From: Alphaproteobacteria bacterium
GTDB taxonomy: Bacteria; Pseudomonadota; Alphaproteobacteria; Rs-D84
Assembly (NCBI GenBank): GCA_017630405.1
Contig: JAGBVH010000007.1
Location: 6,506 to 70,505, forward strand
Direction: 5' to 3'
DNA length: 64,000 bases
The position numbers were made by a program, and so were the translations under genes. Under the pieces are notes generated by a model. The model was not told the DNA's origin, did not search any database, and worked only from the letters and a program-made list of their open reading frames with translations. Shown here in pieces: positions 9,579 to 64,000 of the stretch (the stretch's first letter is position 1; each line of letters opens with the position of its first letter).

Positions 9579-9692
9579 AATCTCTTCCCTTCTTTTTTCT
9601 TTGTAATTATATCATAAATAAGTTGACAAAGAAATATTATTTGCAATAATTTGTCCATAATCAGAAATAATTTAACCATACAGAGGTATCAC

Positions 9693-10832
9693 ATGACCAA
9701 AAAAGCAAACATGGGTAAAATCAAACGCTCGACAGACGATATGATTGACGATGCAATCGCACAGCAGAATGATTGGCAGGAAAATCGCAGAACCTATACA
9801 CGCGGATTTTTGAAATCCCTTAATATGTTCGCTCGTCCTTCGGCAAAAAAAGTAGAAAGTCAATCTGAGGCAAAAATAGAAGTTAAAGAAGCGCGTAACA
9901 ACAAGACCGGTGTAAAGGCATACTGGTTCCCTATTATGTGCGCACTGTTTGTTATCTTTATGGTCATTTGGTTGGTGTTTATCGGTGTTCATCGCGAACC
10001 ACGCGTGTTGGCGGTGCCAAATATTCCAGAACCAACCGTTCAGCAGATAAAAAAATATGAAACACCAAGTTTTGATATCGTTCGTATCCAGCATGATGGC
10101 AGCATTGTTGTTGCAGGTCGCTGGAAAGCGAATACTAATGTTTCTGTATTGGTTAATAATAAAGTTGTATCAACACAACGCACAGATGAAAATGGCGAAT
10201 TTGTATATGCGCCAACCACACCTTTTGCGGCGGGCAACTATACATTTGCCTTGTTGGGTACTGACCCAGAAGTAAAATCTGATGACAAGGTGTTTGTTTA
10301 TGTTTCCGAACATGGATATAAAAACTCGTTGTCTTTGTTGATGACCAAAGATGGCAGCACTTTGTTGCAGGGTCCATACTTGTTAAAAGATGGTGATTTG
10401 ACAGTATCAAAAATCGACTATCTGGATTCGGGTCGTATGATTGTCACAGGTACTGCGTTGCCAAGATTGCGTGTATCAATGATTTTGAATCATAAATATT
10501 TGGGCTTTGCACGCGTGTCCGATTACAGAAACTTTGGACTGGGTGCGGATATTGGCGATTTGGAGCCAGGCAAAGAATATGAATTAATTGTTCGTCTGCA
10601 CGATGGTGCCGGTCGCACAGTTGCAAATATCATACACAAATTTACAGCACCTGAAATGACTGGTGATGACGACACATTTTATACTGTTCGTCGTGGCGAC
10701 TGTTTGTGGGTAATTGCACGCAACTTTATGCGCCGCGGCATCTTGTTCAGCATCATCGCAGAACGCAATAATATTGAAAATCCTGATTTGATTTTCCCAA
10801 AACAGAAATTACAAATTCCAGTAATAAAATAA
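9693..10832 (+). CDS. Membrane-anchored LysM peptidoglycan-binding protein
   Basis: ATG 9693 has RBS agagg 6 nt upstream. One TM segment (AYWFPIMCALFVIFMVIWLVFIGV). C-terminal LysM (YTVRRGDCLWVIARNF...LIFPKQKLQIP). Confidence 0.8.
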   Translation: MTKKANMGKIKRSTDDMIDDAIAQQNDWQENRRTYTRGFLKSLNMFARPSAKKVESQSEAKIEVKEARNNKTGVKAYWFPIMCALFVIFMVIWLVFIGVHREPRVLAVPNIPEPTVQQIKKYETPSFDIVRIQHDGSIVVAGRWKANTNVSVLVNNKVVSTQRTDENGEFVYAPTTPFAAGNYTFALLGTDPEVKSDDKVFVYVSEHGYKNSLSLLMTKDGSTLLQGPYLLKDGDLTVSKIDYLDSGRMIVTGTALPRLRVSMILNHKYLGFARVSDYRNFGLGADIGDLEPGKEYELIVRLHDGAGRTVANIIHKFTAPEMTGDDDTFYTVRRGDCLWVIARNFMRRGILFSIIAERNNIENPDLIFPKQKLQIPVIK

Positions 10833-17653: not shown

Positions 17654-18025
17654 ATGATTATCGAAAATTTAGACGGTTTTGTTTTGGGGAAAGCTTCTTT
17701 GAGTGCACAATCCGGTCAACCATGGCCCTTTCACGGTGCACCTATTGCAATTTACACAGATTTAAACCTTGCTAAAAAAGCAGTGATTGAATCTCAGACA
17801 AACTTTTCAAAACCGCACCCTGTGTGGACATCTGTTTATGCGGTTTCGGCATCTAATATTGACTGTGTGGAACTACATGGTGACGGAACATTTGTAACCG
17901 TACAGGCGCATAAGATTATTACTAAAAATCCTGTATTCTATAGCGCAAGCACCACCGTCAGCAACAATGCCCTGTCTTTTGCGCGCGCACGCAAAATACA
18001 AAATTTTATGAACAAGCTTAAATAG
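17654..18025 (+). CDS. Hypothetical protein (123 aa)
   Basis: ORF tightly packed 7 nt after the previous stop. No recognisable motif. Confidence 0.45.
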   Translation: MIIENLDGFVLGKASLSAQSGQPWPFHGAPIAIYTDLNLAKKAVIESQTNFSKPHPVWTSVYAVSASNIDCVELHGDGTFVTVQAHKIITKNPVFYSASTTVSNNALSFARARKIQNFMNKLK

Positions 18026-18035
18026 GAGGGAGCAA

Positions 18036-18341
18036 ATGGATTTTATTAAAAAATATTTCAAGATTTTTATCGGCGTTGCCGCACTTATTATGGTTGTTGT
18101 GGTGTTTTTCTTTTCACAGCGCAGTAACGATTTGGAAACTGGAACACTAAAAGACTGGCCGGCAGCCACATCCGAACGGCGTATTTCTGCTGCGCAAATT
18201 TTGACCGGCGCAGACAAAGATATCGATTTGCTGGTCGCGTGTATCGACAAAATGGCAACCCTGCCCGACAGTGGCGAAATGGCAATTCGTGACGCAGCAT
18301 CGTTATGCTATACAGGGATTCAACTGAAAGAAAATCTGTGA
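18036..18341 (+). CDS. Hypothetical membrane-anchored protein (101 aa)
   Basis: RBS aggaggg. N-terminal TM segment IFIGVAALIMVVVVFFF. Confidence 0.5.
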   Translation: MDFIKKYFKIFIGVAALIMVVVVFFFSQRSNDLETGTLKDWPAATSERRISAAQILTGADKDIDLLVACIDKMATLPDSGEMAIRDAASLCYTGIQLKENL

Positions 18342-19027
18342 TGAGATTTTTATTATTTGCTTTTATCTTGGCCGGTTGCAGTTGTGGCGCGCCACAATAT
18401 GCCGGCCATAATTATTTGGGTGCAAAATATATCAATTCGCCATTGGGCGAAGGTGTATTGCCCGATACAGACCCACTAATTCGTTTTGATGCATTTGACT
18501 GTACCACTTTTGTTGAAACAGTATTGGCGGACGGCGATGTAAAAAAACTTAATCAAATCAGATATAAAAACGGCACGATTGATTTTGTTTCACGCAATCA
18601 CTTCATAGAATCAGACTGGTTGGTCAATAATTCAAATCTGGTAGAAAATATTAGTTCTGAATTTGGCAAAACGGCTGTTCGGTATGTGAAAATAGACAAA
18701 AAGTCTTGGTTCAAAAAAACGCACAATATCGATACAGACTTTGAAACGCAAGATATTGCACTGGAGTATTTGCCCTATAATGCGTTTGATGATATCTCTG
18801 TATCCGAACCTATGATTGTGTTATTTGTTACTGACAACACAAAAATACATGATAAAATAGGCACAGACTTAGCCGTTGTGCATATGGGATTTCTGATGCC
18901 GAATGGTGTTTTGCGACATGCGTCTTCGGCACAAGGACGGGTTGTGGACGTGAACTTTAAGGAATACATAACACAGCGCAAACAAAACAAAAACAACATC
19001 GGTATCGCATTGGTGAAAATAAAATGA
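18341..19027 (+). CDS. Lipoprotein, DUF1460 / amidase-like family
   Basis: Lipobox MRFLLFAFILAGC. PLIRFDAFDCTTFVETVLA matches the DUF1460 core as I recall it. TGATG overlap with the upstream ORF. Confidence 0.55.
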   Translation: MRFLLFAFILAGCSCGAPQYAGHNYLGAKYINSPLGEGVLPDTDPLIRFDAFDCTTFVETVLADGDVKKLNQIRYKNGTIDFVSRNHFIESDWLVNNSNLVENISSEFGKTAVRYVKIDKKSWFKKTHNIDTDFETQDIALEYLPYNAFDDISVSEPMIVLFVTDNTKIHDKIGTDLAVVHMGFLMPNGVLRHASSAQGRVVDVNFKEYITQRKQNKNNIGIALVKIK

Positions 19028-27216: not shown

Positions 27217-29145
27217 ATGGATATTACACAAGTATTGTTGTTTGGTGGTGCGACTTTGGGCGGCCTATTATTTATCACATTGATAGTATTGTTTTTTGTG
27301 TCGCGCAAATCTCAAAAAATTATGAATTCGTTGCTGAATATTATGCTACAACCCCAGCGTGTTAAAGTAGAAGATGCCAAGCGCGTACTGTCCTCCGTGC
27401 TGGCAGATGAAATCAATAAAATTGAACAATCCTTTCAAACAATGCGCGATACACTTAATGCACAAATCGCACAAGCAAATGAACTTAAGCATTCGTTAAC
27501 GGTTCAAAATGACAGGTTAATTGCCTTGGCAGACGAGGCAACCAAGAAAATCGCTGTTATGTCAGGCCGATTGGACAATACTGTTGGCGGTCTGGGCGCA
27601 GTTGTAAGTTCTGACGCTTGGCAGGATGTAGAAAACTCAACCGACAGATTCAGCAATACCGTTAACGACTTAATGGCGCACATAACTGAAACCGCAAACA
27701 ATACCACACAGCAAACAGCACAAATTCAATCACAAATCGATTCTTGGCTGGAAAGCAGCAAGAACTTGTCCGAAGGATTAAGTGGTGAATTTGATAAAAA
27801 CAAAGAACATATGCAGAATATAACAACAGAATCCGAGACTATGCAGAACAAACTGTCAGAACTGGCCAAGTCTGTAAATGATGGGTTTGATAAAATAAAA
27901 TCGACCGCATCCGATTATGAATCTATTATGACAAACAATAACAAGCAGTTGGATAATCATTTAAACAAACTGGACGCGTTCTCGAAACAGTCCAAGAAGC
28001 AATTAACCAGCCAAATGAACACATTGACCAATACAGCCAATGTTGTTGGCGGCCAGATTCGCTTGGCAGAAACTTCTGTTGACAAACAATTACGCAAACT
28101 GACCGAGGTTGTTGAAAAACTGATGTCAACCGCCACAACCACGGAATCTTCGGTGCGCGGAATTTCTGGGGAACTGGCAGCATTGACCAACAGTTTTGAT
28201 AATGAAATCAAAGAATTTGCAACCGGTGTTGTATCAGAACTTAAGACAGTATCAGGCGTTGCCAATGTGACACTTGAAAACACCAAGACCGCAGCAAACG
28301 CATTTTCGGATTCAGTAAAGACTATGGCGACCAGCGTGCGTGAAACACTGATCGAAATGAACACAGCGCACACACAATTGTCTGGCCAATCAGCAAACCT
28401 GATTAAAATGTCAAACGAAACAACCGCACAACTGCAGCCACTGTCTGTATTAATCGAAAAATACTATTCGGCCCTGCCCGATTTGTCACGCGGTAGCATC
28501 GAAGCCAGTGAAACACTTGAGAAAATCGTAGCAAGCCTGAATGAAAAACTTAATCTGATGAAGAGCACTGTTGCAGAATCTACAACCGCTGTATCTGAAT
28601 CTGCTATCAAATTGGAGGACTTGGCCGGTACATCACGTCAGCAGATGATTGACCTGATGTCTGATTATGCCAAGGCTGTTAACACTATGCAGACACTAAA
28701 CAAACAAATGATGGTTGCACGCGCAACAGCACCGATGGATGCGATTAAGACCGCGCCTGCGGAATCGTTTGGTCGCATCAGCAGTCAGGACTTTGTTGCA
28801 CAAAGCGAACGCATGTTCGAAAAACTGCATGAACAGTCCATGGATTTGACACGCGCAACGGGCGCAGAAATTCCAGATATTGTTTGGAAGAAACATCACG
28901 CGGGCGACAGCAAAATCTTTTCTAAATGGCTAGCAAAAATGCTAAAAGCCGCTGATAAAAAACAAATCCATAATATGGTTAAATCAGACACCGTATTCCG
29001 CAACCAAGCAACACAGTTTGTGCGCGGATTTGACAAGGTTCTGACAACCGCACAACAGGCAGATAACGCCGACAAGTTGGCGGCCGCGCTTATTAAAACG
29101 GATTTGGGCCAGATTTATTCGGCACTTAAACCAAACATTCAATAA
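27217..29145 (+). CDS. Membrane-anchored long coiled-coil protein (642 aa)
   Basis: RBS aggggga. N-terminal TM segment (VLLFGGATLGGLLFITLIVLFFV). About 450 aa of Q/N/T/S/E-rich helical sequence. A distinct C-terminal domain (DIVWKKHHAGDSKIFSKWLAKML...). Confidence 0.7.
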   Translation: MDITQVLLFGGATLGGLLFITLIVLFFVSRKSQKIMNSLLNIMLQPQRVKVEDAKRVLSSVLADEINKIEQSFQTMRDTLNAQIAQANELKHSLTVQNDRLIALADEATKKIAVMSGRLDNTVGGLGAVVSSDAWQDVENSTDRFSNTVNDLMAHITETANNTTQQTAQIQSQIDSWLESSKNLSEGLSGEFDKNKEHMQNITTESETMQNKLSELAKSVNDGFDKIKSTASDYESIMTNNNKQLDNHLNKLDAFSKQSKKQLTSQMNTLTNTANVVGGQIRLAETSVDKQLRKLTEVVEKLMSTATTTESSVRGISGELAALTNSFDNEIKEFATGVVSELKTVSGVANVTLENTKTAANAFSDSVKTMATSVRETLIEMNTAHTQLSGQSANLIKMSNETTAQLQPLSVLIEKYYSALPDLSRGSIEASETLEKIVASLNEKLNLMKSTVAESTTAVSESAIKLEDLAGTSRQQMIDLMSDYAKAVNTMQTLNKQMMVARATAPMDAIKTAPAESFGRISSQDFVAQSERMFEKLHEQSMDLTRATGAEIPDIVWKKHHAGDSKIFSKWLAKMLKAADKKQIHNMVKSDTVFRNQATQFVRGFDKVLTTAQQADNADKLAAALIKTDLGQIYSALKPNIQ

Positions 29146-34472: not shown

Positions 34473-36947
34473 TTAAATGCCCTCAGGTACCAATATCAAA
34501 TCTATCACACTGCCATCTGAGCCTTGTTTAGAACAATAATTGGTTATATCATTGTTTGTCCAGCCATCTGGGCAGACCTGACTTCTGTCTGAAATATTGT
34601 CTGTTACAAGCCAAACCGACTCGCTGGTCGCCGGAGCCTCTTTTGGGTACGCCGCCACACACTTGGCAGAATACCCCCACTGACTGCGACGCGCACCATT
34701 TTCCCAACAAGAGCAAATGCCCCATGAAGCAATATCTGTACCCAGTGCATAATCCTTGGGGCACATATTTTCTTTTTCGCCTATGCCATACAAGGACTCA
34801 ATTGTATCACCACCATATGAAGTATTGTCGTTTTCAGTATATAAACATAAATTATCGCTGTCATAGCCAGACTTAATGAACTGCGTTTCAACAAAACGCC
34901 CCTGCAAGTCCATGCATTGTGTGGACAATATGTCAACAATCTGATTGTAAACTTCGGTTGCAACACCCGTTGAACGAATTGCACGATGAGTAACCGTTGT
35001 GCCGTCATCGTGCAACAAGCCATAAAGCAGTTTTGCTTCATTTGCTGTCGATTGCGCCAAATGATATATCGTCTCATTATTATTTGTGTCACTTGTGACA
35101 TACATATAATCCAGACCGCCAAAGGCCGCCTCGACCATTTCTGGGGCACTGCACGCTTCAATTTCTGCCAGATGTTTGGCGCATTCTGATTTGTATGTTT
35201 TTAACTGTGTCCCGTCTTCATTTAGCATCACTTCGTACAGCGTAAACCAATCCGGTGCTTGCCCTGTTCTGAACAGGCCGCTGTACGGATAATAGAAGTT
35301 TTCATAGTTGGTTCCGCCATAACTGTCAAAGCATTGCTTTACAATTGCGCGACACGCCGCCAATGTATCCGCTTCTTGTCTTTCCTGAATATACATAGCA
35401 ATAATGTCGCCATCGAACATATTGTTACAAGATTCGACATAATCCGTACACATTTTGCCAGTCAATGCGATTTTGTCTGGCTGTAATGCCACACTGCCCG
35501 AACCTGACAAACCAGACATAGCAGAAGTTATTGCACCATCGCCATTGATATAACAGGAAGAAACATAGTCAAAACAACCCTGCTTGATTTCATCGACCTT
35601 GGACCGTTGCGCATAGTAAATATCCAGCAATGCCTTGTCCAAATATTCCTGCCATACTATATCCGCATTTTCCACGCACTTGTCCAGCGCATCAGCAGCA
35701 AATTTTTTGGTGCGCGCCTCAAAATTATTTACAAATGTGCGATTATTGGAATTTGATGACAACTTTTGATCGGCGGCTTCAACACCGTCTTTGAACACCA
35801 GCATTTCTTGTAGTTTATAAAAGTCAACCACGCCAGCAATCGGTTTGCCTGTTGATATGTCTATGTATTCGCCATTATCAAGACACTTGTGATAATTTGC
35901 CCCACAAACTTGTTCGCTTAATATTGCCGATTCTACTTCGCTGATACATGTGGCAACATTAGAAGAATTGTGTTTCTGACGGTTTTCTATACGCGCCAAA
36001 TCCAGCATTGCACTACCTTCGCGGACAGCAGCCTTCATTTGTTTTTGAGTATTTTCAATCGCGGTTTGAACTGTATTACAATCCTGTTCTACCGCCATAA
36101 GGTATGCAGTTATGGCCCGTTGAAGCGCAGCATCCGTGCAATCGTTTTTGACCGCCTGACGACATTGAGGATAAACAGCGCTGTAAAGATTTTTACCGTT
36201 ATAAGCCGCGATTGCCTGACCCGCGTCGGTCATTCCAAACGCATTTGCTGTATCAAACGCAATATTTATACTGTTCAAATCCGAGAATTTACCCCCGACA
36301 GTACTGTCTTCACCACGGATAGAGTTCATAATCGCCTGAAGCAGCGCCTTGGATGCAGACTTATCATCAGTTAAGGCATTTTCGCCCTCGGACGCGGTTT
36401 TCATTGCCGCCGCCTGTGCCGCGGTCATACCGACAACATCAAGATTTTCCGTAAAGACCGTTAACTGTTCGCCCGCCTGTTGCAAAACATCGCGCTTGGC
36501 CGCCAAGTCATACACCCTGTCATTACAAGAACAGCGGCGATAATCATCATTTTTTAATGTGCAAAACTGATCCATACATGAAAAGTAAGCATCTTTACAC
36601 TGTTCATATGCCGCACCTGTACGCGTATCAATCGTTGATGTGTCTGTCGCCGCGCGAGATACAGTGCGCGATGTACCCGAGGCACGCAACGCAACAGATG
36701 TACGGGTTGGTGCGGATGGTGTGCGGGTCGCAGCACGGGATACAGTTGTCTGTTTTGTCGCAGCGCGTGGCACAACGACCGTTCCGCGAGCGGTATTTGT
36801 ACGCTTGGTTGTTGTAGAAACACGACTTTGCGTTGTGCGGGAATCATTATTTTTTGTCCTTTGAACCGTTGTCCCATCACGAACAGCAGCGTTGGCAAAA
36901 CCAACGCAAAGCAGTAAATTTGCGGCAAAAAACAGAATTTTCTTCAT
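34473..36947 (-). CDS. Large secreted cysteine-rich protein, family member B (824 aa), paralogue of 2693-5110
   Basis: ATG 36947 (MKKILFFAANLLLCVGFANA signal). R/S/T-rich tract (TVSRAATRTPSAPTRTSVALRASGTSRTVSRAAT). Shared motifs CKDAYFSCMDQFC..YRRCSC, QDCN, CGANYHKCLD and ENADIVWQEY. Confidence 0.8.
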   Translation of the reverse strand: MKKILFFAANLLLCVGFANAAVRDGTTVQRTKNNDSRTTQSRVSTTTKRTNTARGTVVVPRAATKQTTVSRAATRTPSAPTRTSVALRASGTSRTVSRAATDTSTIDTRTGAAYEQCKDAYFSCMDQFCTLKNDDYRRCSCNDRVYDLAAKRDVLQQAGEQLTVFTENLDVVGMTAAQAAAMKTASEGENALTDDKSASKALLQAIMNSIRGEDSTVGGKFSDLNSINIAFDTANAFGMTDAGQAIAAYNGKNLYSAVYPQCRQAVKNDCTDAALQRAITAYLMAVEQDCNTVQTAIENTQKQMKAAVREGSAMLDLARIENRQKHNSSNVATCISEVESAILSEQVCGANYHKCLDNGEYIDISTGKPIAGVVDFYKLQEMLVFKDGVEAADQKLSSNSNNRTFVNNFEARTKKFAADALDKCVENADIVWQEYLDKALLDIYYAQRSKVDEIKQGCFDYVSSCYINGDGAITSAMSGLSGSGSVALQPDKIALTGKMCTDYVESCNNMFDGDIIAMYIQERQEADTLAACRAIVKQCFDSYGGTNYENFYYPYSGLFRTGQAPDWFTLYEVMLNEDGTQLKTYKSECAKHLAEIEACSAPEMVEAAFGGLDYMYVTSDTNNNETIYHLAQSTANEAKLLYGLLHDDGTTVTHRAIRSTGVATEVYNQIVDILSTQCMDLQGRFVETQFIKSGYDSDNLCLYTENDNTSYGGDTIESLYGIGEKENMCPKDYALGTDIASWGICSCWENGARRSQWGYSAKCVAAYPKEAPATSESVWLVTDNISDRSQVCPDGWTNNDITNYCSKQGSDGSVIDLILVPEGI

Positions 36948-37023
36948 CTCTGATAGAAATATTAGCAAATTTGTAAAAATCAGTGCAAGTGAATAATAAA
37001 GTTTTGAAATTTATTTTTTCTTG

Positions 37024-37063: not shown

Positions 37064-37150
37064 GCGGATATGGCGAAATTGGTAGACGCGCTAGTTTCAG
37101 GTACTAGTGGTAGCAATACCTTGGAAGTTCGAGTCTTCTTATCCGCACCA
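37064..37150 (+). tRNA. tRNA-Leu (anticodon CAG)
   Basis: Acceptor gcggata pairs with tatccgc. Anticodon loop ttCAGgt. Long variable arm. Encoded CCA. Confidence 0.9.
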
Positions 37151-37155
37151 GTTTT

Positions 37156-37231
37156 GGGGTTGTAGCTCAGTTGATAGAGCGCTACGTTCGCATCGTAGAG
37201 GTCGTGGGTTTGAGTCCCATCAGCTCCACCA
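37156..37231 (+). tRNA. tRNA-Ala (anticodon CGC)
   Basis: Acceptor ggggttg pairs with cagctcc, including G3-U70. Anticodon loop ttCGCat. Encoded CCA. Confidence 0.9.
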
Positions 37232-37237
37232 AGTTTT

Positions 37238-37258
37238 GCCGCGAAACGCGGCTTTATT
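37238..37258 (+). terminator. GC-rich hairpin plus TTTATT between tRNA-Ala and tRNA-Leu(UAA) (weak terminator or processing element)
   Basis: Stem gccgcg, loop aaa, stem cgcggc, followed by tttatt. Confidence 0.35.
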
Positions 37259-37268
37259 AAAAGTCTTC

Positions 37269-37355
37269 GGGGATATGGCGGAATGGTAGACGCTGAGGAC
37301 TTAAAATCCTTTGGTCATTGCGACCGTGTGGGTTCGAGTCCCACTATCCCCACCA
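37269..37355 (+). tRNA. tRNA-Leu (anticodon UAA)
   Basis: Acceptor ggggata pairs with tatcccc. Anticodon loop ctTAAaa. Long variable arm. Encoded CCA. Confidence 0.9.
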
Positions 37356-37374
37356 CACAATTATCTGTATTCTT

Positions 37375-37451
37375 GGATGTGTAGCTCAGCTGGTTAGAGC
37401 GCTTCGTTCACATCGAAGAGGTCGTTGGTTCGAGTCCAATCACATCCACCA
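37375..37451 (+). tRNA. tRNA-Val (anticodon CAC)
   Basis: Acceptor ggatgtg pairs with cacatcc. Anticodon loop ttCACat. T-arm gttggttcgagtccaat. Encoded CCA. Confidence 0.9.
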
Positions 37452-42201: not shown

Positions 42202-43452
42202 TTATTTACTTACACAGTTTGCAAATCCCTGCGCGACCAATGATTGCTCGGCCGGAGTCAATTCTGCAACCGGAATCATATAACAGCGTGCGCTATCGCG
42301 AATCACAAAAACTTTGGTCCCGCGAATATATGCCTGTTGCATATCATCTATCTGGGCACTGTTCAAAAATGCGTTAGGCGTTGTGGATTCTTGGACCATG
42401 GCGGCATTAACAACCTGATACGCCATATCATAATTGTACAACTCTGAACGAGATGTGACCTCCATCGCGATACTCTGGTTCGCATATGGATTTTCAACCT
42501 GTTGTTGAGTGTTGGTTGGGTAAGCCGAACCTAACGCCAAAGCAGCAACTGTCTGCAACGCAGTTGAACCATTATTACCTGTTGGATGAGATACTGTATT
42601 CATCTGCTGGTTATCACCACAAGCAAGATTCATACGATTTGTATAACTGGCCAAGACAGCATCAACCGCAGCTTGCCAATCATCGCCCTTGGAATTTAAA
42701 TCAAGCGACACAATCTTGTCCGCCCAACCCCAAATATTTGCACCAACATTACCGGCATTGGCAAAACGGGTCACCATTTCAGCACTGCCCCCTGGGACAC
42801 CAGCGCCACAGGCATCGGTCAACAATGTTTTTAACATACTGTCGGTTTGTGTACCATATGACAACGCAATCGTATGGCACGCCATAGCCGCTTCTAGTTC
42901 GCGACGACGGCTGATACACAAATCAGAACTTGATTTCGCCAACTGATCCGCCATATTCATCATAGACAGATAGGATGTCATTTCCTGTTGGATATACTGT
43001 GGACACAAACGCGCAGCAGTATTCATACCGCCCGTTGCCACATGTGTATTTGTATTATACTGAGGCAGCAGAATATCCGTATCACGCTGCAAACACAGCA
43101 AAGCATAATTATACAATTCGTTTGGTGATGCATATGTACATTTTGGCGCGCTTACCCCCGGAACAACCGCCGTATCACCACAATATTCCGCAAAGCATTG
43201 AAACAATTTCTGACGGCACGCTGTATCAACATCCAACTGGGTCACCATATAGTATGTGTTACGTTGATTTGCCTTGTATGCCTGGGCCAGACCGGCATTA
43301 CCGCGCAAATTTGTACCCGCAGTTGTATTTGTAACCAACGATACGCCGCGCGAAGAGCCATCAGCACCAACAGTACCAGCAGACACCGCGACCGCAGAAT
43401 TACCCAATAAACATGCGCCTATTACACCAAATATACTAAGAAAATGTTTCAT
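42202..43452 (-). CDS. Secreted Cys-containing protein (416 aa), possible distant member of the Cys-rich family
   Basis: Signal peptide MKHFLSIFGVIGACLLGNSAVA. DTACRQKLFQCFAEYCGD resembles CRDAYATCMDQFC of the large paralogues. Confidence 0.65.
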   Translation of the reverse strand: MKHFLSIFGVIGACLLGNSAVAVSAGTVGADGSSRGVSLVTNTTAGTNLRGNAGLAQAYKANQRNTYYMVTQLDVDTACRQKLFQCFAEYCGDTAVVPGVSAPKCTYASPNELYNYALLCLQRDTDILLPQYNTNTHVATGGMNTAARLCPQYIQQEMTSYLSMMNMADQLAKSSSDLCISRRRELEAAMACHTIALSYGTQTDSMLKTLLTDACGAGVPGGSAEMVTRFANAGNVGANIWGWADKIVSLDLNSKGDDWQAAVDAVLASYTNRMNLACGDNQQMNTVSHPTGNNGSTALQTVAALALGSAYPTNTQQQVENPYANQSIAMEVTSRSELYNYDMAYQVVNAAMVQESTTPNAFLNSAQIDDMQQAYIRGTKVFVIRDSARCYMIPVAELTPAEQSLVAQGFANCVSK

Positions 43453-51627: not shown

Positions 51628-51660
51628 TTATAACCTTTGTGCCTATTATAACTTAAAAAC

Positions 51661-51689
51661 TTGCAATTTCCAGTCTAAAAGAGTATAAT
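51661..51689 (+). promoter_or_regulatory. Consensus sigma70 promoter of ssrA
   Basis: TTGCAA (51661-51666), a 17 nt spacer, then TATAAT (51684-51689). Confidence 0.7.
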
Positions 51690-51695
51690 TGATGG

Positions 51696-52037
51696 GCCAC
51701 GCGAGTGGTGATGATTCTGAAGCCTTTGTGCAATAGTCATTTTGGACTGGGGGGCGGTACCCCACAGCTCCACCATTATTTGATATGATTTTTGGTCGTA
51801 TTTGATTATGGGGCTGACATAGATTCGACAGATGATGAAAGACAAAATGGTTGAATCCGACATGGTGTCGTTAAAAACCAACTAAAAACTGAATGGCGAT
51901 AGAATCGCTGCGAACGACAATGTTCGCCTTGCAATGGCTGCCTAATATGGCGTTGAATACGGTTGGCGATTGTTAGCCGTGTTCGTTTAAGCAATTGCGG
52001 GGTTTGCCGGTACCTGGCACCAGAAATCCGGCGTTTT
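51696..52037 (+). ncRNA. ssrA: Circularly permuted (two-piece) tmRNA gene: acceptor piece to 51775 (..CAGCTCCACCA), spacer, then coding piece from 51810 (GGGGCTGA..)
   Basis: The 3' acceptor strand cagctcc-a-cca (51765-51775) lies upstream of the 5' strand ggggctg (51810-51816). Together they form a 7 bp acceptor with G3-U70. agattcgac D-analogue. Tag ORF GCG AAC GAC AAT GTT CGC CTT GCA ATG GCT GCC TAA (51910-51945) encodes ANDNVRLAMAA. Terminator hairpin at 52006-52037. Confidence 0.85.
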
Positions 52038-52382: not shown

Positions 52383-54143
52383 ATGAAACAATATATTTTA
52401 CCACTTCGCGATTTAGTCGTACATCCGTCACTGACAGTGCCGGTGTATATTGATAATCCTGTATCTGTCGCCTGTATCGAGGCTGCCATGAACGCGGACC
52501 GCCGTGTGGTGCTGGTTCCACAGCACAGTTGGGCGTATCCTGCGACCGTTGAAGACATATACTACATTGGAACAATTGGCGATATTGTTCAGGTTCTGCG
52601 TATGCCTGATGGGGCCGTACATGCGATTGTAAAAACGACTGGCGTTGTGGCACTTAATGACACGACTGTTCAAAACGGAATCTTTACCGCAGATATCAAC
52701 CCGATTGAAATCGCAGACGACATGGAAAGCGAGACAACCATTGCTTTGCGCGATAAAATCGCAGACTGCCTGCAGACAATTGCTGCTAGTATTCGCAAGT
52801 TCAAAATGGAAAAACTGCGTAATGTTATCCAGAACTATCCCCTGCCCGCGTTTGTGGATTCTGTAGTTGAAATGGCCGACATCGACACAGACAATGCACT
52901 TAAGATTTTGTGTGCCCCTTCGTGGCAGGACAAAATGATTCTGTTGCTGGAACAGGTAAAATTACTTAGCGAAACATTTAAAATCGAAGATTCTATTAAC
53001 CGCCGTATTCATCAGCAAATGGAAAACGGCCGGCGCGAGGCTATATTACAAGAAAAAATGCGCGCCATCCAAAAGGAAATGGGCGAAGATTCTGAAGAAA
53101 TGGATTCGGAAAATATGCGAAAAAAGATTCAGAAGTCCGCTATGCCAACCGAGGCTAAAGAAAAAGCAATGAGCGAGTGGAAGCGTATGCGCTCTATGTC
53201 ACCTATGTCCAACGAAGGTGGATTGCTTAAAACATATTTGGACGAATTGCTGTCTATGCCTTGGGACAAATCTGATAATACGCCGATTGATTTGAATAAT
53301 GCGCGTGAAATTTTGGATTCCCAACATTCTGGGATGCGTGGGGTCAAAGAACGCATACTGGAACATATTGCGGTGATGAAAAAGACTGGCGGCAATCAGG
53401 GCACTATTCTGTGCTTTGTTGGTGCGCCAGGTGTTGGGAAAACATCGCTGGGTAAATCAATCGCTGCGGCATTGGGCCGAAAATATCAACGCATTTCATT
53501 GGGTGGCATATCAGACGAGGCGCACTTCCGCGGCCATCGCAAAACATATATCGGCGCACAAACTGGGCGTATTATGGATGCGCTTAAACGCTGTAAGTCA
53601 AACAATCCCGTCATTGTTCTTGATGAAATTGATAAAATGGGACGTGATTGGCGCGGAGACCCTGAATCTGCGCTGTTGGAAATTTTGGATCCAGAACAGA
53701 ACAAGACTTTCCGCGATCATTATCTGGAAGTGGATTTTGACCTGTCCAAGGTTATGTTTATCGCGACCGCAAACAGCCTTAACCTGTCTAACGCTTTAAA
53801 AGACCGTATGGAAATTATCGAAATTCCTGGTTATTCTATGGACGACAAAGTTCAAATTGCACGCGAACATTTGATTGGACGCGCAGCACGCGACACGGGC
53901 TGGAATACTGACGACATTATTATTTCCGATGATGCGTTGCGACACATTATTCAAAAATATACCTCGGAACAAGGTGTGCGCGAAGTTCAGCGCGAACTGA
54001 CTGCTATTTTGCGCCGCGCTTTGTTGGAAAATAACTGCGTGGACACAAAAACAGAATTTACAAATGAAAAAATTGACCAGTTGTTGTCTGTGCGTCAATC
54101 TGCTGGATTTTCCAAAAAAATAGGATTTGGGGTGCACGCATAA
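52383..54143 (+). CDS. lon: Lon N-terminal plus AAA+ domains without the proteolytic domain (586 aa)
   Basis: ILPLRDLVVHPSLTVPVYI (Lon N-domain), GAPGVGKTS (Walker A), VIVLDEIDKM (Walker B) and EQGVREVQRE (sensor 2). The ORF stops at ..SKKIGFGVHA, where the Ser-Lys protease domain would begin. Confidence 0.85.
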   Translation: MKQYILPLRDLVVHPSLTVPVYIDNPVSVACIEAAMNADRRVVLVPQHSWAYPATVEDIYYIGTIGDIVQVLRMPDGAVHAIVKTTGVVALNDTTVQNGIFTADINPIEIADDMESETTIALRDKIADCLQTIAASIRKFKMEKLRNVIQNYPLPAFVDSVVEMADIDTDNALKILCAPSWQDKMILLLEQVKLLSETFKIEDSINRRIHQQMENGRREAILQEKMRAIQKEMGEDSEEMDSENMRKKIQKSAMPTEAKEKAMSEWKRMRSMSPMSNEGGLLKTYLDELLSMPWDKSDNTPIDLNNAREILDSQHSGMRGVKERILEHIAVMKKTGGNQGTILCFVGAPGVGKTSLGKSIAAALGRKYQRISLGGISDEAHFRGHRKTYIGAQTGRIMDALKRCKSNNPVIVLDEIDKMGRDWRGDPESALLEILDPEQNKTFRDHYLEVDFDLSKVMFIATANSLNLSNALKDRMEIIEIPGYSMDDKVQIAREHLIGRAARDTGWNTDDIIISDDALRHIIQKYTSEQGVREVQRELTAILRRALLENNCVDTKTEFTNEKIDQLLSVRQSAGFSKKIGFGVHA

Positions 54144-59367: not shown

Positions 59368-59444
59368 GGGTTAGTAGCTCAGTTGGTTAGAGCGGAGCGC
59401 TCATAACGCTTTGGTCGTGGGTTCAAGTCCTACCTAACCCACCA
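59368..59444 (+). tRNA. tRNA with CAU anticodon, more likely tRNA-Ile2 (lysidine) than elongator Met; not an initiator
   Basis: Acceptor gggttag pairs with ctaaccc (1-72 paired, so not fMet). Anticodon loop ctCATaa. The ttggtcgtgggttcaagtcc segment resembles E. coli ileX as recalled. Confidence 0.85.
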
Positions 59445-59452
59445 AAGTTTAA

Positions 59453-59479
59453 ATCCCTGTCGTATGATGGGGATTTTTT
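59453..59479 (+). terminator. Intrinsic terminator after tRNA(CAU)
   Basis: atccc...gggat hairpin followed by TTTTTT. Confidence 0.55.
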
Positions 59480-59603
59480 GATTAAAATTAAATTGCAAAC
59501 ACTATTTTTTATGTTAAACAAAAAAAATTCTTGATTTTGTGTTTTTTTACCTTGCGCTGGTGGCGGTAAATTTTCTACCATAAAGTATAAAAGAGAGGAA
59601 GAA

Positions 59604-62600
59604 ATGGGGAAAATTCGCAGTTTTCTGGGCTTTTTTGTATTTTTGACAGGACTGATTTTTGCGACAAATTCGTTTGCGACCGGCTATTCGTGCCCTGCGT
59701 ACGCTAAGTATTCAAGTTGTAATCCTGGATTTTTCTTGTCCAAAAATGGCGCCTTCCAAGCCTCTCCGGAAGCAGGTAACGCGTGTACAAAATGTCCAGA
59801 CAATGCGGTTGTCTGCCATGGTGGAACCGAAGCCCCTGTTTACGATATTGAATTGAACTCTAATGGATTGGCGGCAACAGAAGTAGTCGCGACCCTTTAC
59901 CGTAGTGCTACCGCTGGCTTCTGTACAGATGCCGAAAACTGTGTGGCAGACGGCAGCAGTGTTATTGAACCAGGCGCAAAGATTGATACATCTATATTTC
60001 CAACAGATTTAAATGGCGTGATGTTCTTGGATGGGTATTATGCATCACCAACCAGTTCAGCGAATCGTCTTATCGATGGCAACGGAAATTTAGCAACCAA
60101 TATCAGCGGCACCTTATCGAATACAGTCGAGGGGCCATTGGTCGTTTATCTGCACTCTTCTCTGGATTTAGAGCTGAATCCAAATGGCGGTACTGGTGGT
60201 ATCATCTTGCACCGTGTTCAATATAAACAGGCTGCAACAAAAGTTTTAACATTACCGACACGTTCGGGTTATACGCTTTTGGGTTATTATGACAATCCAG
60301 AAGGAGCTGGTAAACCATACTTTAACGGCTCTGGTCAGCCAACTTTTGCAACCTGGGAATCCGCACAACCCAAGACATTGTATGCTATCTGGGGCGAAGC
60401 AACCTATACTGTAACATATAACGCTAATGGTGGCGCGGGCACAATAGCCGACAGCACATTCCAATACGATATCGATTCGACACTGTCAGAAAACTCTTTC
60501 ACACGCGAAGGTTATACTTTCGCAGGTTGGAACAGCGATTTGACCGCTGCTAATAATGGCGAAGTACAATATGTGAACAATGCCACAATCAGCATAAGCG
60601 AAGCTGATTTGCCAAGTGGTGTTTATTCGCTGTATGCGGTATGGGCTGCAAACAAGTACACCATTACATATGATGTAAATGGCGGCACAAACACAGTCGA
60701 ATCTACAGAATGCACATATGACAAGGATTGCACATTATCTGCAACCATACCAACACGCGTAGGATATGCGTTTGGCGGCTGGACATATAACGGCAACACA
60801 TATGCCTCGGCCGATACCGTCAGGAACCTGACCGCAACAAACAACGGTTCTATCACAATGACAGCCGTTTGGAACGCAAACCAGTACACAGTATCGTTTA
60901 ATCCAAATGGTGGTACCGGCGGTCAAAGCGCAGATATCACTGTGACATACGATGCTACAATGCCTGCAATCGACACAACTGCACCTTATAAGTCAGGCGC
61001 GATATTCGCGGGCTGGGCATATAACGGCACAAAGTACTATGAAGCTGATGGCAGCAGCACAGTTAAATGGAATGTAGCGAGTAACACAACATTGACCGCT
61101 GTTTGGACAGCAAGAACAGAATATACTGTTATCTATAACGCGAACGGTGGCAATGGCAGCATGGCCAGCAAGACATGCACATATGGTGCAGACTGCGTAC
61201 TGGATACGGCAAGTGCTTTGTCTATGGCACACTATGCGTTTAATGGCTGGGCAACAAGTACAGATGGTGCTCCAATATATACAGACGGCCAGACAATCAA
61301 TGTGTCTGTTTCAGATTGGCCAGATGGCGTATTGAACCTGTATGCGACATGGACACCATATACCCTTACAATCAAGTATAATGCCAATGGCGGTAATGGT
61401 CAGATGAGCGATAGTGTATTTGATAACAATGCCCAGAGCGCAATCTTGAGCAAGAACACATTTGTCCGCGAACACTATACATTTGGTGGTTGGGCAACAA
61501 GCGCAAATGGTGCAAAGGTCTATGACGATGCACAAGATGCCAAGACAGAATTGGCCGCTGCGCAGAATAACTTTGCGACCAAGACTCTGTACGCTGTATG
61601 GAACGGTGACAATTATACTGTAACATATGACGCAAATGGTGGTACCGGCACAACAGCTGCAACAACAGTAACATATCCAACACAGGCAACATTGTCCAAC
61701 AATGGATTCAGTCGCATTGGATATTACTTCGCTGGCTGGGCTGCGAACAGCACCGCAGCAACCGCACAGTATCAAGCGGGCGACAAGATGTCTGTAACAG
61801 GTGACACCACACTGTATGCGGTATGGGCTGCAAACAAGTACACCATTACATATGATGTAAATGGTGGCACAAGCACAGTCGAATCTACAGAATGCACATA
61901 TGACAAGGATTGCACATTATCTGCAACCATACCAACACGCGTAGGATATGCGTTTGGCGGCTGGACATATGACGGCAACACATATGCCTCGGCCGATACC
62001 GTCAGGAACCTGACCGCAACAAACAACGGTTCTATCACTATGACAGCCGTTTGGAACGCAAATGAATATACATTGTCATTTGATTTGAACGGTGGCACAG
62101 GAACTGTACCTGCTGCAATCAAGGTAAAGTATAACAACAAGCCTTCGAATATCGCTGGCAACATGCCAACCAAGGCCGAAATGATATTCGCTGGATACGA
62201 ATACAACGGCAAGTTGTACTTTAACGCAAGCGGTGTGGCAACACGCATCTGGGATGTTGCAAGCGATGCTACATTGACAGCCAGCTGGACAACCAGAACG
62301 CAATTCACAGTTGTCTTTAATAAGAACGGCGGTACATTTACACTGTCAGACCAGACCTGTGAATACGGCGACACATGTACGCTGACAAAACTGGGAACTA
62401 ACTATACCATGACAGGCCATACATTTGGTGGTTGGGCATTGGGCGCAGATGAAGCAGCCGTATATGCTGACGGTGCTGTGATAAGCATATCGGGCTCGGA
62501 TGCACCAGACGGTATATTGAACCTGTATGCCGTGTGGGTACCAAACACCATGACATATAAGTATAACGCCAATGGTGGTGCAGGACAGATGACAGATAGC

Positions 62601-64000
62601 GTGTTCACATTTGATGCCGCAACCGCAAATCTGGCTACAAACAAGTTCACACGCGACCACTATACATTCGGTGGATGGGCGACAAGTGCAAATGGCGCAA
62701 AGGTCTATGACGATGCCCAGGACGTTAAGTCCGAAGTAGCAGGCACCCAAAGCGGTTCCAAGACACAAACTCTGTACGCAGTATGGAATGGCAACAACTA
62801 TACCGTAACATATAGTGCCAATGGTGGTACCGGCACAACAGCCGCGACAACAGTAACATATCCAACACAGGCAACATTGTCCAACAATGGATTCAGCCGC
62901 ATTGGATATCACTTTGTTGGCTGGGCTGCGAACAGTGACGCAACAACCGCACAGTATCAAGCGGGCGACAAGATGACTGTAACAGGTGACATCACTCTGT
63001 ACGCGGTATGGTCAATGAACAAGTATGACATTGCCTTTAACGGCACAGATGGCACAGGAACTGGCCCTGAAATAATCAGCGCGACTTATGGTCAGACTTA
63101 CACCCTGCCCGACTGCACATTTGTCAGAACAGGATATAGTTGTGCCGGCTGGAAATATGGCGAAACAACCTATAAGGCTGGCGACAGCGTCAAGAACCTG
63201 ACAGACAAAGACGGTGAAACTGTCATGATGACTGCGGTTTGGACACCAAACACATATACAGTGACATTGGTGACAACCAACCCTGTGGATGTGTCACAAA
63301 AGACAACCAAGGATGTATATCTGGTCTATGACACAGGCTGGTATTCCGATCAAGGCGCAAACAATGCGATTACCAATGTCGAAGTACCAACATATGATGG
63401 TTATGGGTTTGGTGGGTATATCACTGACAGCGGTGTTACAGTTGTGAATACAGACGGCAGTCTGACAAGCAACAAGACATTTACGACCATAAATGTCAGT
63501 GCAACATCCAAGTGGACAGCAGGTCAAGTAACTTGCGCAGCAGGAACATACTATCTGGGAACAGGCACACAGTGCAGCACTGAATGTCAAGAAAACCACT
63601 ACTGCCCAGGTGTGACAGTATCGGTTGACAGCGGTGTAGCGGGTCTGGAAACATGTCCAACAGGCTATCCGTACGCAGACAATAATGCTGTACGCGAAGG
63701 TCAGTGCTACACAACCGAATGTAAGCCAGTCGCAAATGGCACAACAGACGGCCGTGACTACTTCGACAACTCGCTGGATACATGTAAGGTAGTATCTTGT
63801 GAAAATGGTTATTACTTGAACGACGGCGTATGTAGCATATGCGAGGCAGGCAAGTACTGTAACGGCGGAACAAGCACACCAATACTGTGTCCAAAAGAAT
63901 ATCCAAACACTGATGCAGGCGCACAATCGATAGAAGCGTGCTATAGCGAATGTGAAAACACAGCTAACGCCGATAACATGACAGGACGTGCGTACTATGG
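59604..64000 (+). CDS. Giant secreted/surface protein with InlB-B / Listeria-Bacteroides (Flg_new) repeats between Cys-rich modules (3' end beyond the window)
   Basis: Not in the ORF track because it has no stop in the window. I translated the frame by hand from ATG 59604 (RBS agagagga) at several points up to 64000 and found no stop. Signal peptide MGKIRSFLGFFVFLTGLIFATNSFA. At least 13 units of the type YTVTYNANGG.G......Y......L..N.F.R.GY.F.GW.........Y........LYAVW. Confidence 0.9.
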   Translation, partial: MGKIRSFLGFFVFLTGLIFATNSFATGYSCPAYAKYSSCNPGFFLSKNGAFQASPEAGNACTKCPDNAVVCHGGTEAPVYDIELNSNGLAATEVVATLYRSATAGFCTDAENCVADGSSVIEPGAKIDTSIFPTDLNGVMFLDGYYASPTSSANRLIDGNGNLATNISGTLSNTVEGPLVVYLHSSLDLELNPNGGTGGIILHRVQYKQAATKVLTLPTRSGYTLLGYYDNPEGAGKPYFNGSGQPTFATWESAQPKTLYAIWGEATYTVTYNANGGAGTIADSTFQYDIDSTLSENSFTREGYTFAGWNSDLTAANNGEVQYVNNATISISEADLPSGVYSLYAVWAANKYTITYDVNGGTNTVESTECTYDKDCTLSATIPTRVGYAFGGWTYNGNTYASADTVRNLTATNNGSITMTAVWNANQYTVSFNPNGGTGGQSADITVTYDATMPAIDTTAPYKSGAIFAGWAYNGTKYYEADGSSTVKWNVASNTTLTAVWTARTEYTVIYNANGGNGSMASKTCTYGADCVLDTASALSMAHYAFNGWATSTDGAPIYTDGQTINVSVSDWPDGVLNLYATWTPYTLTIKYNANGGNGQMSDSVFDNNAQSAILSKNTFVREHYTFGGWATSANGAKVYDDAQDAKTELAAAQNNFATKTLYAVWNGDNYTVTYDANGGTGTTAATTVTYPTQATLSNNGFSRIGYYFAGWAANSTAATAQYQAGDKMSVTGDTTLYAVWAANKYTITYDVNGGTSTVESTECTYDKDCTLSATIPTRVGYAFGGWTYDGNTYASADTVRNLTATNNGSITMTAVWNANEYTLSFDLNGGTGTVPAAIKVKYNNKPSNIAGNMPTKAEMIFAGYEYNGKLYFNASGVATRIWDVASDATLTASWTTRTQFTVVFNKNGGTFTLSDQTCEYGDTCTLTKLGTNYTMTGHTFGGWALGADEAAVYADGAVISISGSDAPDGILNLYAVWVPNTMTYKYNANGGAGQMTDSVFTFDAATANLATNKFTRDHYTFGGWATSANGAKVYDDAQDVKSEVAGTQSGSKTQTLYAVWNGNNYTVTYSANGGTGTTAATTVTYPTQATLSNNGFSRIGYHFVGWAANSDATTAQYQAGDKMTVTGDITLYAVWSMNKYDIAFNGTDGTGTGPEIISATYGQTYTLPDCTFVRTGYSCAGWKYGETTYKAGDSVKNLTDKDGETVMMTAVWTPNTYTVTLVTTNPVDVSQKTTKDVYLVYDTGWYSDQGANNAITNVEVPTYDGYGFGGYITDSGVTVVNTDGSLTSNKTFTTINVSATSKWTAGQVTCAAGTYYLGTGTQCSTECQENHYCPGVTVSVDSGVAGLETCPTGYPYADNNAVREGQCYTTECKPVANGTTDGRDYFDNSLDTCKVVSCENGYYLNDGVCSICEAGKYCNGGTSTPILCPKEYPNTDAGAQSIEACYSECENTANADNMTGRAYY
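60630..61811 (+). repeat. Internal super-repeat copy 1 (five B-repeat modules, 1182 bp)
   Basis: 60630-60880 differs from 61812-62062 at only 4 positions that I can see. The 3' end (61585-61811) is also highly similar to 62770-62996. The middle is more diverged. Confidence 0.85.
61812..62996 (+). repeat. Internal super-repeat copy 2 (1185 bp)
   Basis: Tandem to copy 1 and in frame. Same order of five modules. Confidence 0.85.

Follow-up and report, generated by a model that had tools for sequence, protein, structure and literature searches.

The stretch of DNA analysed here, 64,000 nucleotides (nt) of contig JAGBVH010000007.1 and hereafter called the window, comes from a gut alphaproteobacterium and ends inside a giant gene, of which the first 1465 of 1866 codons lie at 59604..64000 (+) and the remainder is cut off by the window end. 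We show that this gene is real, and we establish its architecture, its family, its synteny, the purifying selection acting on it and the likely structural class of its modules. A preliminary description of the same DNA had presented the product as a giant surface adhesin. The Sec-exported repeat protein of that description stands, while surface exposure and adhesion, together with disulfide bonding, polarity and a ligand, are properties that we infer. We lean towards the explanation that the gene encodes a disulfide-stiffened fibrillar adhesin with new terminal domains, which would attach the bacterium to a partner or host cell. Its Cys-rich head and tail are the undescribed signature of a lineage-wide family of hundreds of giant proteins, and a literature search for a description of this family found none.

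Translation of 59604-64000 (+) gives 1465 codons with zero stops. The frame had been described as open from the ATG at 59604 to the window end, for more than 1460 codons, and as absent from the list of open reading frames (ORFs); both statements are correct, the list omitting ORFs that run off the sequence end. The full gene could be followed in a second strain, L001, on a 95.8-kb metagenome contig of the European Nucleotide Archive that is collinear with the window. The full-length homologue found there, P0001, has 1866 amino acids (aa) encoded by as many uninterrupted codons, and is 98% identical across the whole query. Over the shared 1465 aa the two proteins differ by 30 substitutions and 0 indels, and are therefore equal in length in this region. 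At the nucleotide level there are 35 synonymous and 31 non-synonymous differences, which by the Nei-Gojobori method give a ratio of non-synonymous to synonymous divergence (dN/dS) of 0.26, against 0.03-0.19 for four neighbouring genes in the same comparison. The giant gene is thus functional and under purifying selection, less strict than that on housekeeping genes.

A Shine-Dalgarno sequence, AGAGAGGA, can be read at 59592..59599 (+), 5 nt 5' of the ATG. Further upstream lie a tRNA-Met gene (59368-59444) and, downstream of the latter, an intrinsic-terminator-like hairpin recognised in the sequence at 59451..59476 (+), which would cut the giant gene off from upstream transcription, so that its own promoter must fall in 59480-59590; a sigma-70 consensus promoter sought upstream of the gene gave no match. 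The upstream region is near-identical in strain L001, its A8 and T7 tracts being of equal length, and a comparison of the two strains for signs of phase variation, in the form of upstream homopolymer length differences, revealed none.

Architecture of the giant protein

The protein starts with a Sec-type signal peptide (aa 1-25; 59604..59678 (+)), as had been claimed. Its N-terminus, MGKIRSFLGFFVFLTGLIFATNSFA, followed after the cleavage site by TGY, has the canonical basic n-region, 14-aa h-region and small-x-small cleavage site, and is the sole hydrophobic segment of the protein. Next comes a conserved Cys N-module (aa 26-78; 59679..59837 (+)), which corresponds to the Cys-containing module previously noted in front of the repeat body and for which there is no known relative. 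In the family, conservation covers ~78 N-terminal residues that include the signal peptide, itself unusually conserved (MGK.R.FLGFF..L....F..NAFA), and continue beyond the cleavage site as AGY.CP..K.YTSC..GYYL...GN.C..CP.....C..GT.C. The linker that follows (aa 79-186; 59838..60161 (+)) has two Cys and aligns without conservation; on visual inspection, it could be a degenerate unit of the Flg_new type.

The body of the protein (aa 187-1303; 60162..63512 (+)) is an array of Flg_new units, also known as Listeria-Bacteroides or InlB B-repeats, delimited by hidden Markov models (HMMs) and unit alignment. Pfam Flg_new (PF09479) matches 13 stretches with 354.3 bits against a cut-off of 27 (E = 3e-108), and TIGR02543 reaches 75.3 bits on the window protein (cut-off 20.95). 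A custom HMM, made from the units of the protein itself, recognises 13-14 units of 75-84 aa, the array consisting of 12 canonical units of this length (aa 268-1216) with one degenerate unit on either side. The signature of the tandem units, Y.V.Y..NGG ... GY.F.GW ... LYA.W, is confirmed both by the unit alignment and by this HMM, and threonine accounts for 16% of the array residues. At least 13 repeats of ~75-85 aa, framed by Cys-rich modules, had been recognised beforehand, which agrees with these counts and with the Cys-rich segments at aa 26-78 and from aa 1304 onward.

Within the array, a super-repeat of five units is present twice, as u2-u6 (aa 352-745) and u7-u11 (aa 746-1140), at 60657..63023 (+) and with a period of ~1185 nt. 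The two copies have diverged unevenly, with amino acid identities of 96% (u2/u7), 49% (u3/u8), 45% (u4/u9), 69% (u5/u10) and 88% (u6/u11), and the duplicated block retains 94% nt identity over 290 nt, a pattern suggestive of local gene conversion near the edges of the block and of diversification in its interior. Units u2 and u7 have undergone identical changes (A to G, R to K) between the strains, and this parallelism points to concerted evolution by gene conversion. The protein resembles Periscope proteins (PMC9704523) in its tandem-domain stalk, its recently duplicated five-domain block (up to 94% nt identity) and its variable unit number, and differs from them in that the two strains are equal in length and most copies are too diverged (45-69% aa identity) for frequent slippage.

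Beyond the array begins a Cys-rich C-terminal region, of which the window holds the first ~80-aa unit (aa 1304-1398) and part of a second (63513..64000 (+)); two further units and a 26-Cys C-terminal domain (aa ~1593-1866) lie outside the window and were read from P0001. This protein has four such units of ~78-88 aa between the Flg_new array and the C-terminal domain, and its region 1291-1866 contains 55 Cys (9.5%) in regular spacing. The units follow the consensus C..GYYL.DG.C..CP.G.FC.GG....P..CP..YP.SD.GA.....CY..C......G...GRDY......TC.VTS, and the corresponding HMM finds 1-18 copies per protein in 133 family members. A two-unit AlphaFold (AF2) model built from the repeat alignment has a mean predicted local distance difference test score (pLDDT) of 91.1 and a predicted template modelling score (pTM) of 0.71, and its top 44 Foldseek matches in the PDB are all cysteine-rich domains (CRDs) of Eph receptors (EphA2, EphA4, EphB) or of TNFR-superfamily proteins (CD40, RANK, OPG, DcR3, DR6, 4-1BB), with probabilities up to 0.99. 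As in these CRDs, the ~80-aa units start with C..GYY...G.C..CP.G.YC.GG. They differ from Ephrin_rec_like (PF07699) by an extra second half, CP..YP.SD.GA....CY..C ... GRDY...TC, and from the Eph and TNFR domains in being bacterial and repeated up to 18 times. Four of ten unit pairs match Ephrin_rec_like and four TNFR_ELAPOR1, DUF7631 also appearing below threshold; Ephrin_rec_like exceeded its threshold in two distant relatives, and the best E-value of TNFR_ELAPOR1_6th (PF23091) among members of the unit alignment was 8.5e-5. The unit profile gave 0 matches to PDB sequences at E <= 10. Since Pfam scores are sub-threshold and structural scores weak, we call the units TNFR/Eph-CRD-like and not certified members of these families.

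The C-terminal domain is the most conserved part of the protein. In an alignment of its ~275 aa from P0001 and ten relatives, mean column identity is 66%, the Cys count is 26 in all sequences, and the last residue is an invariant Trp, the proteins ending in GY..W-COOH; further conserved motifs are GYHPNGQ.C, CDPGYTND and CEIASCMYQGE. The P0001 domain scores 433 bits on the family HMM, and given the 98% identity of P0001 the window strain presumably carries the domain too. No Pfam family covers this region, and its profile found nothing among PDB sequences at E <= 10. The AlphaFold model (pLDDT 86.8, pTM 0.52) is all-beta with hairpins of 3-9 residues, as expected of a string of small disulfide-knotted modules and not of a beta-barrel. 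Its best Foldseek matches are scattered beta-rich or EGF-like arrays with template modelling (TM) scores of at most 0.2, and no fold was assigned to the domain. Aligned by hhalign with the Cys-unit profile, the domain matches in 47 columns only, where both alignments overlap in the last unit, and the other ~230 aa differ from the units in sequence and have no detectable relative.

The family and its conserved locus

The giant gene adjoins a gene for a PIF1-like helicase that is 78-88% identical in 80 loci of GTDB species representatives, nearly all of them assigned to Candidatus Enterousia or to uncultured Alphaproteobacteria/Rickettsiales from ruminant, bird, rodent and human guts; one of these loci is on a closed chromosome of 958,618 bp. 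The window has ~43% GC and encodes a permuted (two-piece) alphaproteobacterial tmRNA at 51657-52035 (+), with the tag AANDNVRLAMAA. The host is a Candidatus Enterousia-like gut alphaproteobacterium of the order Rs-D84, and the earlier reading of it as a host-associated alphaproteobacterium is borne out by the gut origin of the helicase relatives. Members of Enterousia have genomes below 1 Mb, lack respiration, complete glycolysis, most biosynthesis, flagella and standard transporters, and keep rod-shape and peptidoglycan genes, from which an obligate symbiont or parasite lifestyle was inferred (PMC12306168); that study contains no discussion of surface proteins.

The consensus order at the locus is RimI-(orf355)-helicase-tRNA-Met-giant gene-HI0933 flavoprotein. 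Of the 38 loci of sufficient length for a judgement, about 26 carry a giant ORF at this place and in this orientation; the helicase and tRNA-Met genes are inside the window, and the HI0933 gene follows downstream in L001 and 15 further loci. Orthologues at the locus are between 981 and more than 3277 aa long, with 0-15 Flg_new units and 57-199 Cys. Their conservation is concentrated at the ends, with 35-50% identity over the first ~65-115 residues and 44-56% over the last ~230-275, compared with ~30% elsewhere. Three loci (L020, L036 and L037, about 8630-9790) are empty sites in which the HI0933 gene adjoins the helicase gene directly, and others have a rearranged neighbourhood.

Two loci deserve separate mention. 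The rearranged locus of the closed genome (L064, 1-3767) has two Cys-rich ORFs, of 871 aa (29 Cys) and 387 aa (22 Cys), both without the C-terminal domain. The metagenome-assembled genome RGIG5353 has two helicase loci, L008 and L054, whose helicases are 87% and 81% identical to that of the window; the giant gene is present in L054 only, L008 matching none of its modules, and this double locus reflects either a helicase paralogue or a bin mixing two Enterousia strains.

The wider family was delimited with the C-terminal-domain profile, scored exhaustively by HMMER against 1.84 billion representatives, which yielded 641 proteins at E <= 1e-3 and 250 at E <= 1e-30. In 132 of the 151 family sequences examined for architecture, the domain reaches the last residue, and 132 of the 141 proteins in which it ends at most 2 residues from the C-terminus end in Trp. 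A signal-peptide-like start is present in 86 of the 151, and these proteins have 253-4444 aa, a Cys content of 3.9-10.4% and 0-17 Flg_new units, with none in 19 of the 86; three Flg_new-less members (951-1603 aa) checked against Pfam matched no family. The N-module was defined from the proteins found by the same exhaustive search. Its HMM, on which the window protein scores 81 bits, has 63 matches among the collected proteins, and 62 of these also carry the C-terminal domain. From this co-occurrence we consider the two termini to be one coupled frame, within which Flg_new is an optional filler. The emphasis that the preliminary description had placed on the Flg_new repeats should thus be inverted: the array itself is as described, but its units are variable in number (0-17), and it is the Cys-rich ends that form the conserved signature.

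In comparison with other Flg_new proteins, of which the InlB B-repeat is the prototype, the giant protein shares a long tandem-unit region behind a signal peptide. It differs in having no leucine-rich repeat/internalin, LPXTG, GW, S-layer-homology or type IX secretion system (T9SS) modules, and in its Cys N-module and 26-Cys C-terminal domain, which are restricted to this lineage; moreover, orthologues of the giant protein can be Flg_new-free. The Flg_new component is ordinary; the unusual part is its context and the Cys-rich frame.

Possible function and alternative explanations

If the giant protein is a disulfide-stiffened fibrillar adhesin, the conserved N-terminal signal peptide would route it through Sec, and its 72 cysteines would pair outside the cytoplasm into about 36 disulfides. 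In line with such pairing, the mature form has an even number of Cys in 51 of 77 family proteins, more often than by chance (p = 0.006; signal peptides removed by a crude fixed cut), and the signal peptide is the only hydrophobic segment. A stiff, long stalk would then be built from two interchangeable kinds of bead, the Flg_new units (13-14 here) and the TNFR/Eph-CRD-like ladders (4 here), the number of which would shift fast by tandem duplication and gene conversion and so set the length and surface of the fibre. One invariant end would fix the fibre to the envelope of the bacterium itself, and the other would contact something conserved on the partner or host cell, which would serve as nutrient source for a metabolically crippled bacterium. 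Flg_new is among the stalk domains recognised in fibrillar adhesins (PMC9210967), and the giant protein resembles the fibrillar adhesins described by Monzon and Bateman (PMC8286594, PMC9210967) in being very long and Thr-rich, with a signal peptide, a stalk of repeat domains that includes a listed stalk domain, and a repeat number that varies among relatives. It differs from them in having no known adhesive domain or anchor, in its host, a reduced-genome alphaproteobacterium and not a Firmicute or Actinobacterium, and in that half of its stalk vocabulary consists of putative disulfide-ladder modules.

As to polarity, we favour the C-terminal domain as the putative cell-proximal anchoring or sorting module, because it is strictly terminal, has an invariant aromatic end and is the most conserved part of the protein, features that by analogy mark modules recognised by the bacterium's own machinery. 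The reverse polarity is equally compatible with these data; the fibre would then be held at its N-terminus, by the N-module or by a signal anchor that is not cleaved off, and would carry the C-terminal domain at its tip.

Several observations weigh against a fibrillar adhesin. The giant protein has no recognisable adhesive or ligand-binding domain, Flg_new being its sole Pfam family, and none of a beta-barrel, an LPXTG motif, a lipobox, RTX repeats or a T9SS-type C-terminal domain; with no known outer-membrane signal in a presumably diderm host, the protein could stay periplasmic or be released. Envelope and secretion genes were sought in the window and in L001, and only housekeeping genes and orphan ORFs were found. 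How the protein would cross the envelope or attach to it is thus the weakest point of this explanation. The Foldseek matches of the Cys units are weak in absolute terms (best E = 3.7e-3, TM 0.3-0.4, or 0.27-0.37 when normalised to the query), Ephrin_rec_like scores 19.8 bits on these units, under its cut-off of 23.1, and TNFR_ELAPOR1_6th scores 19 bits on the window protein's own units, under a cut-off of 33.2. Foldseek searches of PDB and BFVD with the C-terminal-domain model gave nothing at E <= 1e-3, and as this domain has no structural relative, its role is deduced purely from its position and conservation. Finally, the gene is absent from the locus in some Enterousia genomes, and so it may not be essential.

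Known routes to the cell surface were considered one by one, following an earlier suggestion to look for a C-terminal sorting, autotransporter or type I secretion system signal, and no signal of a known kind is present. Autotransporters carry a C-terminal beta-barrel translocator of 12-16 strands that is essentially Cys-free. A type V autotransporter was rejected, as the last 275 aa have 26 Cys and short hairpins (pTM 0.52) and no autotransporter Pfam family matches. RTX adhesins have no N-terminal signal peptide and are marked by GG.G.D repeats and a C-terminal secretion signal; a type I secreted RTX adhesin was rejected in view of the signal peptide and the lack of GG.G.D motifs. Anchoring through LPXTG or as a lipoprotein was likewise rejected, there being no LPXTG, no lipobox and no second hydrophobic segment.

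Among the alternatives to an adhesin, the one that survives best, although we consider it unlikely, is a variable surface coat or antigen, Cys-rich and protease-resistant, the middle of which would evade immunity, phages or predators, with the conserved ends serving export and anchoring only. The variant-specific surface proteins (VSPs) of Giardia and the Cys-rich antigens of ciliates begin with a signal peptide, are rich in Cys with C..C motifs, and combine a variable body with a conserved C-terminus. The giant protein shares all of these features; like protist surface antigens, it and its relatives have TNFR/Eph-like modules and C..C motifs, at a Cys content of 4-10%. Its middle is extremely different between species while the termini are conserved, and its dN/dS is above that of the neighbouring genes. 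That ratio, however, is well under 1, and the two strains display neither a length nor a phase-variation difference. The protein also differs from Giardia VSPs in being bacterial, in containing Flg_new and in having no C-terminal transmembrane helix or CRGKA tail, and thus no VSP-type anchor. The gene appears to be single-copy and not part of a large switching family: a scan of the window for paralogues or silent cassettes of the giant gene found none, and there is one copy per locus.

Less likely still is that the protein is not displayed on the cell, being instead a periplasmic envelope scaffold or a shed, soluble component of a matrix or biofilm. This would fit a Sec signal that is accompanied neither by a known outer-membrane export or anchoring signal nor by dedicated secretion genes in the neighbourhood. 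A rod of 1866-4444 aa, on the other hand, would be hard to accommodate in the periplasm, Flg_new arrays form extracellular stalks in both characterised and predicted proteins (PMC9210967), and the strictly terminal, invariant C-terminal domain resembles a recognition module.

The preliminary description had raised the possibility of horizontal acquisition, for which we find no support. In its recent form, in which a Flg_new adhesin of Firmicutes or Bacteroidetes type was picked up in the gut, this origin is very improbable. It could be argued from the position of the gene next to a tRNA gene, from the empty sites at the locus in some species, and from the top-scoring Flg_new arrays outside the family, which are found in gut Firmicutes, Actinobacteria (Bifidobacterium), Treponema, Fibrobacteria and methanogenic archaea with ~30-40% overall identity. 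However, the locus and the frame of N- and C-terminal modules are kept across ~26 Enterousia species and at least 250 clusters, and the N-module HMM gave 0 matches among the 119 best foreign Flg_new proteins, none of which carries the C-terminal domain either. The GC content at third codon positions (GC3) is 0.44, within 1 standard deviation of the 0.406 +/- 0.037 of 24 window genes; the higher overall GC of the giant gene comes from codon positions 1 and 2, owing to its Thr/Ala/Gly-rich composition. When each unit is compared with other proteins, its best match has 36-58% identity inside the family and 34-55% beyond it, in an outside set that had been chosen by similarity to the query; with values so alike, this comparison is uninformative as to transfer. 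The best units anywhere are no more than 40-55% identical to those of the giant protein, and the best foreign ones 43-55%, no better than family members. Each unit has its nearest copies within the giant protein itself, which indicates in-situ duplication and also counts against recent transfer. Nothing points to a recent transfer of the giant gene; the Flg_new domain may have entered the lineage by an ancient acquisition.

A non-functional open frame or decaying pseudogene, which might be suspected in a reduced genome with many orphan ORFs, is effectively refuted by a frame intact for 1866 codons in two strains, a dN/dS of 0.26, hundreds of intact homologues with invariant Cys and Trp positions and confident AF2 models.

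Genomic neighbourhood and significance

Besides housekeeping genes (DnaK, RpoD, CysRS, Obg, TsaD, RF, AccA/D, an AmiC-type amidase and a LysM protein), the remainder of the window contains four tRNA genes, for Leu, Ala, Leu and Val, clustered at 37064-37451 (+). At 52383-54143 (+) is a gene for a Lon-like protein of 586 aa, with a dN/dS of 0.03 between the strains, which has LON_substr_bdg, AAA and Lon_lid, and no Lon_C among the precomputed Pfam matches; it could be a protease-less Lon-type AAA+ protein. Two adjacent orphan genes, at 2693-5110 (+) (805 aa, 28 Cys) and 5113-6396 (+) (427 aa, 20 Cys), are probably co-transcribed. Their products have signal-peptide-like N-termini, match no Pfam family save a weak cEGF (E = 0.006) and none of the N-module, Cys-unit and C-terminal-domain HMMs, and may be further secreted Cys-containing envelope proteins. 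Large ORFs without Pfam family are located at 27217-29145 (+) (642 aa, with weak coiled-coil-type matches only), 34473-36968 (-) (831 aa) and 42202-43452 (-) (416 aa). Past the window end, ~2.3 kb 3' of the giant gene, L001 has a 169-aa gene (17905-18414 (+)) with a match to Pfam Mtd_N, the N-terminal domain of the major tropism determinant of diversity-generating retroelements; a homologue of this gene is also present in L021.

Enterousia and its order Rs-D84 are widespread in ruminant, bird, rodent and human guts, uncultured and predicted to be unable to live alone (PMC12306168). The giant gene takes up 0.6-1.5% of a genome of less than 1 Mb, at a fixed locus and under purifying selection across the genus, and the fibre-like build of its product makes it the most obvious candidate for the attachment of Enterousia to a partner. 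The 26-Cys C-terminal domain, unannotated and confidently modelled, could become a Pfam family and a marker of the lineage, and the conserved N-terminal export module is a further element of interest. Within one stalk, these bacteria combine Flg_new beads with putative TNFR/Eph-like disulfide ladders.

More tentatively, the family may be the principal cell-cell attachment organelle of Enterousia/Rs-D84, with termini that constitute a new export and anchoring system and CRD modules that engage a eukaryotic partner. If so, that partner would be the gut epithelium or a gut protist, and the bacteria would be epibionts or parasites for which a ligand-receptor handle could be identified. The termini, produced as recombinant proteins, could serve as baits for the partner or ligand, which would make the ecological question testable.

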